64,000 nt of DNA from Anaerobutyricum sp. (lineage in GTDB: Bacteria > Spirochaetota > Spirochaetia > Treponematales > Treponemataceae): contig CAVHTI010000005.1 of assembly GCA_963638805.1 (NCBI GenBank), positions 9,064-73,063 of the forward strand, in the 5' to 3' direction. The position numbers and the translations under genes are program-made. This document shows positions 13,458 through 24,613 of the stretch, piece after piece (the stretch's first letter is position 1; each line of letters starts with the position of its first letter). Under the pieces are notes generated by a model that ran no database searches, was not told where the DNA came from, and saw only the letters and a list, made by a program, of their open reading frames with translations.

Positions 13458-13493
13458 AAAAACTTTGCCTGGAATAGCGTCAAAGTTTTTATT
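13458..13493 (+). terminator. Terminator-like hairpin after cimA
   Basis: 10-bp stem AAAAACTTTG/CAAAGTTTTT with a 13-nt loop, running into TTTTTATT. Confidence 0.55.
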
Positions 13494-13613
13494 CACAAGT
13501 TTGCGTCGCAAACTTAATTATCTACTGCACATTCTCATTTCATTGCGAATGTGCTTAAAAAGTCAAATCGGAAATTGATATTTCCTCATTGACTTTTTAT
13601 GGGAGATATTTTT

Positions 13614-14702
13614 ATGGAAAAGACAATTGCTCTTATTCCAGGTGATGGAATTGGTCCTGATGTTGTTGCAGAAGCTGTAAAAGTGCTTGATGCAGTTGCA
13701 AAAAAGTATGGTCACAAATGGAACTATACTCATGTTCTGGCAGGCGGATGTGCTATTGATAAATTTGGTCATCCACTTCCAAAAGAACAGCTCCAGATTT
13801 GTCTTGATTCTGATGCTGCATTGCTTGGTGCCGTTGGTGGTCCAAAATGGGATAATCTTCCATCTGAAATTCGTCCTGAAAAGGCCCTGCTTGGAATGCG
13901 TGGCGGAATGAAAGTTTTTGCAAATCTTCGTCCGGCTGTAATGTTTAAGCAGCTTAAAGATGCTTGTCCACTTAAAGACGAAATTGTCGGTGATGGACTT
14001 GATATTCTTATTGTTCGTGAATTAACTGGTGGTATTTATTTTGGCGAAAGAGGAACTTCTGAAGACGGAAATACTGCCTGGGATACAGAAAAATATACTC
14101 GTCCTGAAATTGAAAGAATTGTAAGAATGGGTTTTGAATATGCAATGAATCGTCAGAAAAGACTTTGCGTTGTAGATAAAGCTAACATTTTGAACAGTTC
14201 CCAGTTGTGGCGCCGTGTTGCAGAAGACGTTAAAAAAGATTATCCGGAAGTTGCACTTTCTTATCTTTACATTGATAACGCTTCTATGCAGATGGTAAGA
14301 AATCCTAAACAGTTTGATGTTATTGCAACTTCAAATATGTTTGGTGATATTCTTTCTGATGAAGCTTCGCAAATTACAGGTTCAATTGGTATGCTTGCGT
14401 CTGCATCTTTGGGCGATGGAACAGGTCCTGGCCTTTATGAGCCAATTCACGGTTCTGCACCGGATATTGCCGGTAAAAACCTTGCAAACCCACTTGCAAC
14501 AATTCTTTCTGCAGCAATGCTTTTGCGCTATAGCTTTAAACTTGAAACAGAAGCTAAAGCAATTGAAGATGCAGTTCAGGCCGTTCTTGATGAAGGCTGG
14601 AGAACTGGTGATATTGCGGGTTCTCATCTTGCAGAAGTAAAAGCTGCCGGAAAACTTCTTGGAACTAAAGAAATGGGCCAGAAAGTTGCTGATAAGATCT
14701 AA
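13614..14702 (+). CDS. leuB: 3-isopropylmalate dehydrogenase
   Basis: [23 protein letters not shown] and GSAPDIAGK. Start trimmed to ATG 13614, with GGGAG 8 nt upstream. Confidence 0.9.
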
Positions 14703-14734
14703 AAACTGAAATTTTTAGAAGATTTATGAAAAAG

Positions 14735-14768
14735 ACCGTTCTGATTTTACTTACAGGACGGTTTTTTT
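14735..14768 (+). terminator. Rho-independent terminator after leuB
   Basis: ACCGTTCTG / CAGGACGGT stem (one G-U pair) followed by T7. Confidence 0.8.
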
Positions 14769-14769
14769 A

Positions 14770-15053
14770 TTGAAGGTATAAAAGTACCTTCAAAATGGCG
14801 ATGTCAAGGCCCTGAGTGAAGCGTGCCTTGACGCGACTTATTGAAGGTATAAAAGTACCTTCAAAACGGCGATGTCAAGGCCTTGAGCGAAGCGTGCCTT
14901 GACGCGACTTATTGAAGGTATAGAAGTACCTTCAAAATGGCGATGTCAAGGCCCTGAGCGAAGCGTGCCTTGACGCGACTTATTGAAGGTATAAAAGTAC
15001 CTTCAAAATGGCGATGTCAAGGCCTTGAGCGAAGCGTGCCTTGACGCGACTTA
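14770..15053. repeat. Tandem array of four complete 71-bp units, plus a degenerate fifth unit to about 15076
   Basis: Units start at 14770, 14841, 14912 and 14983 (period exactly 71). Each unit is TTGAAGGTATAAAAGTACCTTCAAAATGGCGATGTCAAGGCCCTGAGTGAAGCGTGCCTTGACGCGACTTA, with 4 variable sites in total. Confidence 0.95.
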
Positions 15054-15076
15054 TATAAGGTATAAAAATACTTTCA

Positions 15077-15320
15077 GCGTAAGCGATTGTAGCAGCCGCG
15101 AAGACTGTTTCAACAGCCGAAGCGGAAGCCCGGAGCGGCACTATTTGTGCCGCGAGGACTTTGGAGCGAACAGCGGAATTGCGCGATGTTTTGTTTTCCT
15201 TACGAATGTAAAATAGAAAACAAAACTCGTGAGTGAAGCGTAGATAGCGCGACCCTGGCAGGCGGTTTTTACAAAAAATTAACGGTTTTCTGTAGATTCC
15301 GCCGGACAGGGGATACGCCC
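15077..15320 (+). repeat. Dispersed hairpin-rich intergenic element, copy A (full length)
   Basis: 5' module GCGTAAGCGATTGTAGCAGCCGCGAAG, hairpins at 15103-15118 and 15135-15153, linker GGAGCGAACAGCGGAATTGCG, an 11-bp A/T hairpin at 15188-15226, CTCGTGAGTGAAGCGTA, and 3' end GGGGATACGCCC. Shares modules with copies B-F. Confidence 0.8.
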
Positions 15321-15341
15321 ATATTAGGAATGGGAGAGAAA

Positions 15342-16625
15342 ATGAATAGTTCTTTGCTTGATTATATTTTGTGGCGCGGAGATTTGAGTTTTGAACAGTG
15401 CGAATTTGGCGAAATTGACGCCTGCATTCTTGCTCATCTGGCGTATGAACATATTGAAGGTCTTGTGAGTTCGTCTTTTTCGCAGGGAATTACGCTTGCT
15501 GACCTTGCGGAAAATTTTAAAAAAACGGCGAATTTGCGCGAAAGAACGAGCATGGGCTATGGAATTAATCCTAAAACACCGGAAATTTTGTATAAATGCG
15601 GAGAATCAAGGCGTTTTGGCGGAATAAAAGTCTGCGGTTTGTGCGAAAATTTAAGTGAAGAAAAAAACGAACAGTTTGCGGCAATGACTTTTGTGATTGA
15701 TAAAACTGCCGTGATTGTTTTTCGGGGCACGGACGATACCGTTACCGGCTGGTGTGAAGATTTACTTCTAGCAAAAAATCCGGTTTTGCCTTCTCATACT
15801 GACGGTTTAAACTATTTTAATAAGGCGGCGTCATTTTTTAAGAAAAATCTGATTATTCTGGGACATTCAAAAGGCGGGACTGTTGCCGTTTATTGTGCCG
15901 TAAAAACTTCTGCGGCGGTTCAAAAAAGAATTCTTGCGGTTTATAACATGGACGGACCGGGCTGGCCAAAAGATTTTTACAAAACTGATGAATATAAAAA
16001 GGTGGAAAACCGCATACTTTCGGTTTATCCGGAAAGTGATATTGTCGGCAAAGTTTTTTATCCTACGGCAAAATATAAAATCATAAAGTCGGACGGGGTG
16101 GGAATTCAGCAGCACGATATGTTGAACTGGCATTGTGAAGGAAAATTTCTTTGCGAGGCGGAAGATTACACGGAAGACAGCAAAATTTTCTTTAAAAGCG
16201 TTAATGAATGGTATGAAAATGTGAGCGAGCCTTCCCGCCAAAGATTTATAGATACTCTGATAGAAATTTACAGGGCGAGCGGTTATAAAAATAATTTTGA
16301 TTTAATGAATAATAAAATTAATGCAACAAAAAATATGCTCGCTGAATATAATAAACTTGATAAAGAAACTAAAGCGGTCGTGAAAAAGGTTCTGTCAACG
16401 CTTGGCAAGGTACTTGTTTCTGAACTGCCGATTTTTAATTTTTTCAGGGAAGATTTTATAAAACTTTCCGCCAAAAAAGGCGTTGAAAAAATTGCTCAGA
16501 TTGTAAAAGAAATTAAAATGCAGGGCACAGAAAATCAGCCGGATTCTGAAAATTCAAAACTTTGCTTGCCGGATAATACAAATAATGATGACGAAAAATC
16601 CCATCAGGATTATTGCGGCGACTAA
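15342..16625 (+). CDS. DUF2974 / Mbeg1-like alpha/beta-hydrolase (lipase-like) protein
   Basis: N-terminal LLDYILWRGDLSF...LAHLAYE pattern and GHSKGG nucleophile elbow, as in the Mbeg1-like family. Start trimmed to ATG 15342 after GGGAGAG. Confidence 0.65.
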   Translation: MNSSLLDYILWRGDLSFEQCEFGEIDACILAHLAYEHIEGLVSSSFSQGITLADLAENFKKTANLRERTSMGYGINPKTPEILYKCGESRRFGGIKVCGLCENLSEEKNEQFAAMTFVIDKTAVIVFRGTDDTVTGWCEDLLLAKNPVLPSHTDGLNYFNKAASFFKKNLIILGHSKGGTVAVYCAVKTSAAVQKRILAVYNMDGPGWPKDFYKTDEYKKVENRILSVYPESDIVGKVFYPTAKYKIIKSDGVGIQQHDMLNWHCEGKFLCEAEDYTEDSKIFFKSVNEWYENVSEPSRQRFIDTLIEIYRASGYKNNFDLMNNKINATKNMLAEYNKLDKETKAVVKKVLSTLGKVLVSELPIFNFFREDFIKLSAKKGVEKIAQIVKEIKMQGTENQPDSENSKLCLPDNTNNDDEKSHQDYCGD

Positions 16626-24305: not shown

Positions 24306-24613
24306 GGGCGTATCCCTCCGCTGCGCTCCGGGTCAGGCTTTTTACGCTTCGCTCACGAGTTTTGTTTTCTATTTTACTTTCGTAAGAAAAACAAAACATC
24401 GCGCGGTTCCGCTGTTCGCTTCAAACTTTTGCAATTTACAGTCAATTATAATTCGATTTTATGTGTTTGTGGGAGCTCGATCTTATGTCAGCCCGAATTT
24501 ATTTCGGGATCTCGGTGTAACAGATGCTGAAATGAATTCAGCATGACTTTTTGAAGAACTTTTCAGTCCAATTGCAAAAGTTCGGCTTCGCCGCCCCTCC
24601 AATCCTTTACGTG
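24306..24613 (-). repeat. Dispersed hairpin-rich element, copy B (inverted, with an internal insertion)
   Basis: Its reverse complement carries GAAGCGAACAGCGGAACCGCGCGATG, the A/T hairpin, CTCGTGAGCGAAGCGTA and ...GGGATACGCCC, with a degenerate 5' module at 24586-24613. A 13-nt inverted repeat AACTTTTGCAATT (24424-24436 / 24570-24582) brackets a 133-nt insert. Confidence 0.7.
24524..24552 (+). terminator. Terminator hairpin for lepA (shared module)
   Basis: ATGCTGAA / TTCAGCAT 8-bp stem with a 5-nt loop, then GAC TTTTT. Confidence 0.55.

Follow-up and report, generated by a model that had tools for sequence, protein, structure and literature searches.

A tandem array of 71-bp units directly behind the leuB terminator is non-coding repeat DNA—not a gene, a CRISPR array or a known riboswitch—and we put at roughly 60% the probability that it represents a local, VNTR-like tandem amplification of a lineage-restricted family of non-coding modules, here called H1–H2 after their two hairpins, that resembles the REP, BIME, BOX, MIRU and NIME repeats. 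The module is dispersed through its carrier genomes, its stems are maintained by pairing, the apex of its second hairpin is conserved, its copies face T-runs with a fixed polarity, its presence differs between close relatives and its arrays recur at separate loci. H1–H2 is new as a family, but the kind of system to which it belongs is familiar.

The array occupies positions 14767–15076 of the window, that is, the whole 64,000-nucleotide stretch of DNA that was analysed. TRF describes it as 4.4 copies of period 71 with 94% matches, 0% indels and a score of 557, and a consensus unit, allowed up to two mismatches, finds four matches where shuffles predict 0. Both agree with the four unit starts given by a first-pass annotation that was made from the letters alone. 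The features of the region are as follows.

13599–14702, + strand: leuB (3-isopropylmalate dehydrogenase), upstream of the array (Pfam Iso_dh, E = 6e-138; open reading frame list).
14735–14768, + strand: intrinsic terminator specific to leuB, adjoined by the array (read from the sequence).
14770–14840, + strand: unit 1 (TRF, consensus match, sequence and RNA fold).
14841–14911, + strand: unit 2, the layout of unit 1 shifted by 71 (sequence, TRF and consensus match).
14912–14982, + strand: unit 3, the layout of unit 1 shifted by 142 (sequence, TRF and consensus match).
14983–15053, + strand: unit 4, the layout of unit 1 shifted by 213 (sequence, TRF and consensus match).
15054–15076, + strand: degenerate remnant of a fifth, partial unit, H1 only (sequence; BLAST hits of module 1 start at about 15077).
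15077–15184, + strand: dispersed module 1, G+C-rich, with GCGAAG-type motifs (BLAST within the genome).
15180–15255, + strand: dispersed module 2, in which TGAGTGAAGCGT comes after a 10-bp hairpin (15 copies in the genome).
15330–16625, + strand: Mbeg1-like gene, downstream of and co-directional with leuB (Pfam PF11187, E = 4e-64).

The leuB terminator comprises an 8–9-bp stem (14736–14743 with 14754–14761), a 10-nt loop and seven T residues at 14762–14768, and the first unit begins one base past this T-run, as had been proposed. In unit 1, H1 pairs 14770–14778 with 14785–14793; the upper stem of H2 pairs 14803–14810 with 14825–14832, and the intervening bases, 14811–14824, hold a bulge, a mini-stem and a GAA loop. 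The two 8-bp hairpins of the first-pass annotation are therefore both present in a richer form: H1 (TTGAAGGTA / TACCTTCAA in this array) has 9–10 bp, H2 has an additional lower stem and the 14-nt H2 loop is itself structured, with a 3-nt bulge, an R–T pair and a 2-bp mini-stem. The four variable positions of the unit (12, 27, 43 and 48) had been assigned to loops and linkers throughout. The accompanying estimate of 0.09 is arithmetically right, being (39/71)^4, and position 12 does lie in the H1 loop and position 43 in the H2 bulge, but positions 27 and 48 both take part in pairs of the family structure: position 27 belongs to the lower stem and is unpaired in the leuB array, where its partner is mutated too, and at position 48 a C:G pair of the H2 mini-stem becomes T.G. 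No frame is conserved, as 71 is not divisible by 3 and the array contains only two short, overlapping open reading frames; this, too, had been noted. CRISPR was rejected at both stages, as the units abut at period 71 with zero spacers. In four contig runs, of DNA or unknown type, positions 14784–14997 have low cover, a pattern that is not interpretable.

Downstream, the array breaks off in the remnant at 15054–15076, the degenerate fifth unit of the first-pass annotation, which retains an H1-like hairpin only and abuts module 1 at about 15077. The remnant's loop, TAAAAA, is that of H1 at other loci, unlike those of units 1–4. Module 1 is a high-copy intergenic repeat that adjoins the array and is unrelated to it: BLAST places 118 hits of 45 nt or more on 64 of the genome's contigs, and the module produces a depth spike in metagenome contigs. 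Modules 1 and 2 together make up what had been labelled copy A of a dispersed element, and the array had been suggested to be a local amplification of that element. An amplified dispersed element it is, with a parent family of its own that is distinct from copy A. The sequence sharing that had been noticed with the 3′ module of the element is real—the 12-mer TGAGYGAAGCGT at 15230 has six matches in the window against 0.02 expected, and the 12-mer TGAGTGAAGCGT of module 2 also occurs in the array unit—and this mini-hairpin motif is all that module 2 has in common with the unit.

The anatomy of the family was defined from 150 distinct copies, in which the parts run ATT, H1, spacer and H2, often after a T-run, with a module size of about 71–91 bp. 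Folded as RNA, one unit forms the two hairpins at −29.6 kcal/mol (z = −5.5); folded as DNA it reaches −16.3 kcal/mol (z = −6.2), and folds with DNA parameters give z = −6 to −8. H1 is mostly a perfect 10-bp stem with a 4–11-nt loop, and its 5′ arm takes 82 distinct sequences among the 150 copies. The spacer between H1 and H2 is exactly 1 nt in 112 of the 150. H2 opens with a lower stem of about seven pairs containing a conserved G.A mismatch, usually with one unpaired base beside the core; in about a fifth of copies (27 of 150, mainly the class B copies described below) the lower stem adopts a register without a bulge. The upper stem, GTCAAGGC / GCCTTGAC, appears invariant and is topped by the bulge, the R–T pair and the 2-bp mini-stem, which is closed by a GAA or a G-N-N-A (GNRA-type) loop. 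Most copies were gathered by a pattern that fixes the H2 core, so that its invariance among them is partly built in; in copies found by BLAST, nhmmer or the covariance model the core is the same, with few variants, among them a compensatory one at one locus of the genome (GTCAAGAC / GTCTTGAC, on contig C61).

Both stems are kept by compensatory substitutions. Alignment of whole units with MAFFT and RNAalifold recovered the H2 apex alone, because H1 was misaligned, and was replaced by anchored counts and an alignment restricted to H2. In the latter, both partners have changed in six pairs, the covariation score of 0.211 compares with 0.105 in shuffles and was reached by none of 500 shuffles, and 93.6% of cells are paired, against 22–46% when the partner is slid. 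By anchored count, lower-stem positions occur in GC, AT, TA and CG alternatives. Across species, the upper stem and apex of H2 are conserved in sequence, whereas its lower stem and H1 covary freely.

Several signals, constrained in part by the search pattern, indicate which strand folds. The + strand of the window carries the G-N(N)-A apical loops, G.T wobbles at H2 pairs 19–35 and 23–34 without A.C counterparts, and tandem G.A in the class B lower stem, and it has the lower folding free energy in 106 of 122 copies, with a mean difference of 2.9 kcal/mol. We consider it likely, short of proof, that the + strand is the one that folds.

Searching the genome and its relatives with the unit, as the first-pass annotation had proposed, returned further copies in the former and matches in 14 of 24 same-genus genomes, compared with 0 of 16 genomes from other genera of the order. 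A covariance model of H2 counts 14 copies at nine loci in the window's own genome (G000); besides the leuB array, BLAST and an nhmmer profile place further copies on contigs C28 (three tandem units), C61, C15, C19, C42, C79, C121 (with a different H1) and C67 (H2 alone). C42 and C79 end inside an array, and the family explains contig breaks in assemblies of these Treponema genomes. Applied to 151 genomes sampled evenly across the order, the model matched 10 of the 17 from the same genus and one sister genus carrying nine copies, and elsewhere gave one weak match (E = 5e-4). Several same-genus genomes that are at least 98% complete have zero copies by the same model. Carriers, which are related to one another so that their counts are not independent, hold 1–23 copies each, one genome in six contigs (G002) holds at least 23 that are near-identical, and another in two contigs (G159) holds 11. 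An exact-pattern scan over one genome per prokaryotic species added at least 119 further stretches; among the matches listed, nearly every one is from a rumen or gut Treponema (T. bryantii, T. porcinum, JC4, C6A8 and many metagenome-assembled genomes), with one from a Lachnospiraceae metagenome-assembled genome. Plasmids gave no match to the module and viral contigs two isolated copies. The Rfam search that had also been proposed gave no family for the units: Rfam 15 held none matching the array or seven other loci at E values up to 1, and over the terminator and first unit there were only sub-threshold, chance-level hits (His_leader, 27 bits against a gathering threshold of 49). Self-cleaving ribozymes and riboswitches were set aside on this basis. 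Spirochaete genomes, those of Treponema included, have been reported to be rich in small repeat elements (PMC11602168). In the part of the literature that our search covered, a description of the H1–H2 family was not found.

The copies are all intergenic, and their polarity with respect to T-runs is fixed. Every locus with a complete unit in G000 (the window, C28, C61, C15, C42 and C19) lies directly after a different, gene-specific terminator hairpin and T-run. Over 138 loci, a run of at least four T residues lies within 14 nt on the H1 side in 63 and on the H2 side in 14, and a terminator-like hairpin with a T-run is found on the H1 side in 34 and on the H2 side in 2; the H1 side thus faces the T-run. 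It faces a gene end at 77 loci and a gene start at 36, and 41 loci lie between convergent genes compared with 26 between co-directional ones. Orientation relative to neighbouring genes is mixed, and that relative to local GC skew is weakly biased (66 versus 39). Clustering of 242 flanking open reading frames, which fall into 211 clusters, revealed no recurrent neighbour gene.

Comparison of relatives captures the module as a presence/absence polymorphism. A 79-nt H1–H2 unit in T. bryantii XBD1002 is precisely absent from strain NK4A124, with both flanks aligned; a 4-nt repeat, GTCG, possibly marks the junctions in this single clean pair, and a third relative has a copy of another subfamily behind a terminator in the same intergenic region. 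At a second locus, a 165-nt composite in XBD1002, in which the unit is nested between 11-bp inverted repeats of another element, corresponds to 22 unrelated bases in NK4A124. The clean filled/empty comparison is thus one pair in which deletion is indistinguishable from insertion, and two other differences are replacements. For the loci of G000, orthologous empty sites were not recovered in the nearest species, in which leuB is about 83% identical, synteny is lost and the regions downstream of leuB differ.

Arrays are a recurrent state of the family. Besides the leuB array, there are 2.9 copies of period 73 on C28, 3.4 copies of period 91 at a further locus (L146) and unit pairs at several more, with arrays in at least four loci and species. 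The units of the leuB array are 94–97% alike and at most 90% like any copy elsewhere; they share private substitutions, and the remnant at their edge has the loop common to other loci. From these three features together we conclude that the array grew by local duplication. A contig from a metagenome run, derived from a related strain and 96% identical over leuB, joins position 14794 to 15072 and so skips 277 bases—all four H2 modules—while keeping one H1. The first-pass annotation had regarded absence or collapse of the array in other assemblies as the mark of an artefact; this contig is in part such a case, and we read it as a copy-number polymorphism instead, since independent genomes also carry arrays of this family.

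In its general features the family fits the VNTR-type modular intergenic repeats (BOX-, MIRU- or NIME-like), a class that is descriptive and implies no homology. Like the REP and BIME elements of enterobacteria and pseudomonads, which RAYT Y1 transposases mobilize, H1–H2 modules are short, structured, palindromic, extragenic repeats that often lie 3′ of genes, keep their stems by pairing, cluster with other repeat modules into mosaics and have no coding capacity. REPs, however, are single palindromes of 20–40 nt with a GTAG-type head that occur in hundreds of copies, in alternating orientation and alongside a RAYT gene, whereas H1–H2 combines two different hairpins in direct tandem at 1–23 copies per genome. 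A RAYT-associated REP or REPIN system was rejected for the two unlike hairpins in direct order, the low copy number and the lack of a Y1 HUH transposase: Y1_Tnp (PF01797) was found in none of five carriers (G000, G002, T. bryantii XBD1002, NK4A124 and SIG99), two isolate genomes among them, and the controls matched. A search for Y2/IS91 transposases also gave no match but is uninformative, as the control genomes were silent too.

The BOX elements of Streptococcus pneumoniae have the order A–B(n)–C with variable numbers of tandem internal modules; effects on the expression of neighbouring genes have been proposed for them, and their means of mobilization is unknown. H1–H2 is like BOX in being a modular, non-coding intergenic repeat with strong predicted secondary structure and differs in that the whole unit repeats and in sequence and lineage; no sequence similarity between the two was found and none is expected. 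With the MIRU/VNTR loci of Mycobacterium tuberculosis it shares head-to-tail intergenic units in the 40–100-bp range, a unit number that varies between strains and dispersal over several tens of loci. MIRUs lie inside operons, where their short open reading frames couple the translation of flanking genes, in contrast to a 71-bp unit without a frame behind a terminator.

Among small mobile elements, the PATEs derived from IS200/IS605 offer the likeness of lacking terminal inverted repeats and of having subterminal hairpins, a strand-specific structure and insertion beside a short sequence motif; they also lack evident target duplications, for which the single clean H1–H2 pair shows a possible 4-nt repeat. 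Yet PATEs need a TnpA Y1 transposase, of which the five carriers have none, and their hairpins are alike, whereas H1 and H2 differ and the replication-orientation bias of H1–H2 is weak; an IS200/IS605-type element served by TnpA in trans was rejected on the same two counts, transposase and skew (only 66:39). MITEs such as the Correia elements of Neisseria are likewise small, non-autonomous and intergenic, show presence/absence polymorphism and can bring regulatory signals, but have terminal inverted repeats and target-site duplications (TA for Correia). A classical MITE was excluded, since the unit ends, ATTG... and ...CGTAT(T), are not complementary and no consistent duplication is seen. Compared by eye with integron attC sites, in which one imperfect hairpin is bounded by RYYYAAC and GTTRRRY cores, the unit has ends AAAC...GTAT, no GTTRRRY and two hairpins, and its flanking genes are unrelated housekeeping genes.

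A minority of copies, termed class B, are placed differently: they have the opposite orientation and lie directly upstream of start codons. Read along the gene strand, a promoter comes first, then a short conserved GTGATATAC, then the complements of H2 and H1 in that order, and finally ATG; the H1 complement presents AGGAGG, a Shine–Dalgarno sequence, in its loop. The promoters are good sigma-70-like ones, and the genes concerned are unrelated: HSP70/dnaK, glnA (glutamine synthetase), dapB, a GH94 phosphorylase, luxS, leuS (LeuRS), a flagellar rod protein and a class II aldolase. One identical H1 with the Shine–Dalgarno loop abuts the ATG of three unrelated genes. At the GH94 gene, the module of NK4A124 stands in place of about 35 bases; the native ribosome-binding site, kept in XBD1002, is among them. 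To judge from sequence and position, this placement is what hints most strongly at a selected regulatory role, and it is the main reason why a simple selfish-repeat reading is held no higher than the probability given at the outset. A portable promoter on the − strand, formed by TTGACA in H2 and the H1 loop, was considered and rejected; its spacing would be 18–21 nt, no recurrent promoter is seen and the predicted start would fall past the Shine–Dalgarno sequence in class B copies.

The regulatory hint can be carried further, to a module that is primarily a cis-acting structured RNA tuning mRNA stability or translation, with dispersal as a secondary matter. Its transcript would be that of the window's − strand, in the 3′ untranslated regions of convergent genes or in class B 5′ leaders, where the H2 complement would form a 5′ stem–loop and the loop of the H1 complement would present the Shine–Dalgarno sequence before the ATG. 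The position of class B copies between promoters and start codons of eight unrelated genes, the shared H1 at three of them and the replaced GH94 leader all suit such a role, as do the covariation, which backs the pairing, and the enrichment of convergent contexts. The strand signals, from loops, wobbles and tandem G.A to the energies of 106 of 122 copies, nonetheless favour the + strand; orientation towards neighbouring genes is mixed; and the window array itself lies behind a terminator, with no convergent gene. Nor did a scan of both strands of 14600–15400 score any unit as a terminator, under a rule strict enough to miss the leuB terminator too. The H2 complement as a − strand terminator found no support, with only 4–5 T residues following it and no call in the scan. 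Promoter-like sites were called inside module 1 and across the junction of unit 4 with the remnant, one each, and none recurs from unit to unit; Rfam is silent. We therefore regard a primarily RNA-level function as rather unlikely. It sits alongside a second functional reading, which we judge distinctly improbable, in which the module is a DNA recognition site: a + strand hairpin or cruciform to which a conserved Treponema protein would bind—perhaps a nucleoid protein, a structure-specific recombinase or a single-strand initiation factor—with arrays as clustered sites. Sequence conservation of the H2 upper stem and apex beside a covarying lower stem and H1 speaks for such a site, the apical GCGAAGC / GCGNNAGC mini-hairpins are of a type that we take to be unusually stable in single-stranded DNA, and the strongly negative z-scores of the DNA folds and the fixed T-run polarity agree with it. 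Against these stand the lack of a candidate protein or a conserved neighbour gene in our searches, the weak GC-skew bias and integron attC core sites not being seen by eye, and an essential chromosomal site is hard to square with a low and varying copy number and with nearly complete genomes of the genus that have none.

A more prosaic explanation is that short-read assembly created the array, or at any rate its four-unit count, as an artefact. The count does come from one short-read assembly of a metagenome-derived genome in 188 contigs, two of whose other contigs end inside family copies; the sole independent contig over the junction lacks the four H2 modules, and exact-pattern scans of metagenomes for the terminator/unit and unit/unit junctions returned no match. 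But each unit has its own combination of the four variable sites, which determines the assembly path, independently assembled genomes and other species have family arrays too, and the contig that skips the units is 4% diverged and hence from another strain, so that we give an artefact very little credence. These three alternatives are compatible with the repeat reading rather than exclusive of it. Several considerations weigh against the repeat reading directly: conservation of the H2 apex across the genus and a sister genus exceeds what a selfish element needs and suggests a host function; no mobilizing enzyme was identified in five carriers; the copy number is low, unlike that of classical REPs; only one clean filled/empty pair was obtained; and the class B placement before start codons looks selected.

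Taking the array as a local amplification of a dispersed repeat, we propose that the module spreads as a non-autonomous element and that the conserved H2 apex may be what a conserved trans-acting factor recognizes on a folded single strand, for which the + strand of the window would fit best. Arrays would then gain and lose units through slippage or unequal recombination among them and not by repeated insertion, because the units resemble each other at 94–97% and copies elsewhere at no more than 90%. A bolder and unlikely version casts the module as a mobile regulatory cassette that is recognized through the H2 apex by a Treponema-specific factor and, depending on its orientation, either parks harmlessly behind terminators or overwrites translation-initiation regions, where it would provide a 5′ stem–loop and a Shine–Dalgarno sequence in a loop just ahead of the start codon. 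If that were true, expression would have been rewired by the spread of a repeat without a known transposase, the native initiation regions of dnaK, glnA, dapB, luxS and leuS would have been overwritten, and the spread itself might have proceeded through a folded single strand or a T-run-primed RNA intermediate.

Rumen and gut Treponema are abundant fibre-degraders whose non-coding DNA is almost unstudied, and H1–H2 gives them a defined, alignable structured element that is in no RNA or repeat library and whose arrays offer VNTR loci for strain typing. Its unusual traits are the lack of a known mobilizing enzyme and a variant that supplies ribosome-binding sites; with no terminal repeats, no known transposase and a polar attachment to T-runs, it poses a small question of how such an element moves. 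The two cultivable T. bryantii strains, in which one gene is found with and without the module in its leader, constitute a natural experiment that can test the effect of a small repeat on translation or mRNA stability.

The tandem array of 71-bp H1-H2 units (a two-hairpin intergenic repeat) behind the leuB terminator is set among the following features of the window:

13487-13604, forward strand: match to the TD-1 RNA motif (Rfam RF03155), at 62.6 bits (E 5e-9) slightly below the gathering score of 64.5
15077-15184, forward strand: G+C-rich dispersed module 1, with BLAST copies elsewhere in the genome
15180-15255, forward strand, and about 24330-24404, reverse strand: dispersed module 2, with 15 copies in the genome
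15330-16625, forward strand: Mbeg1-like protein gene (PF11187), the next gene after the repeat cluster

Module 1, which carries repeated GCGAAG and CCGAAGCGG motifs, is a separate high-copy repeat family of its own. BLAST gives 118 matches to it that are 45 nt or longer, spread over 64 of the genome's contigs, and metagenome contigs show a depth spike over it. In module 2, a 10-bp hairpin (TTTTGTTTTC) precedes TGAGYGAAGCGT, a 12-mer mini-hairpin motif that also occurs in the 71-bp H1-H2 unit; because the two share this 12-mer, GCGAAGC-type mini-hairpins are a building block common among the repeats of this genome. Among the related species examined, the Mbeg1-like gene was not found adjoining leuB, and the repeat cluster therefore marks a synteny break. 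The TD-1 family is a cis-regulatory candidate of the Treponema denticola type, and leuB starts immediately 3′ of the match.

Copies on DNA stretches from outside this genome occur in several settings:

L084:270-440 (T. bryantii XBD1002), also L052, L111 and L100: H1-H2 unit nested in a second small element
L053, L078, L114, L033, L097, L023, L122, L138 and L144: reverse-oriented class B modules
L218:1003-1031 (IMG/VR contig, 161 kb) and L217:6711-6741: H2 core in two viral-contig records

The element enclosing these units, which come from T. bryantii relatives, ends in 11-bp inverted repeats (GTCATTGCGAG ... CTCGCAATGAC) and looks like a classical MITE; the orthologous site in strain NK4A124 lacks it. 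Class B modules present a Shine–Dalgarno sequence in a hairpin immediately 5′ of the ATG of unrelated housekeeping genes. In front of these modules lies a conserved GTGATATAC, which looks like an extended −10 element. The L218 copy has a good H2 (the long bulged hairpin) without a typical H1 (the variable 10-bp hairpin).

Within the genome itself, contigs C42 and C79 both start inside copies of the H1-H2 family and have identical right flanks, probably reflecting an assembly break within another tandem array, such that these repeats would contribute to the fragmentation of the assembly into 188 contigs.
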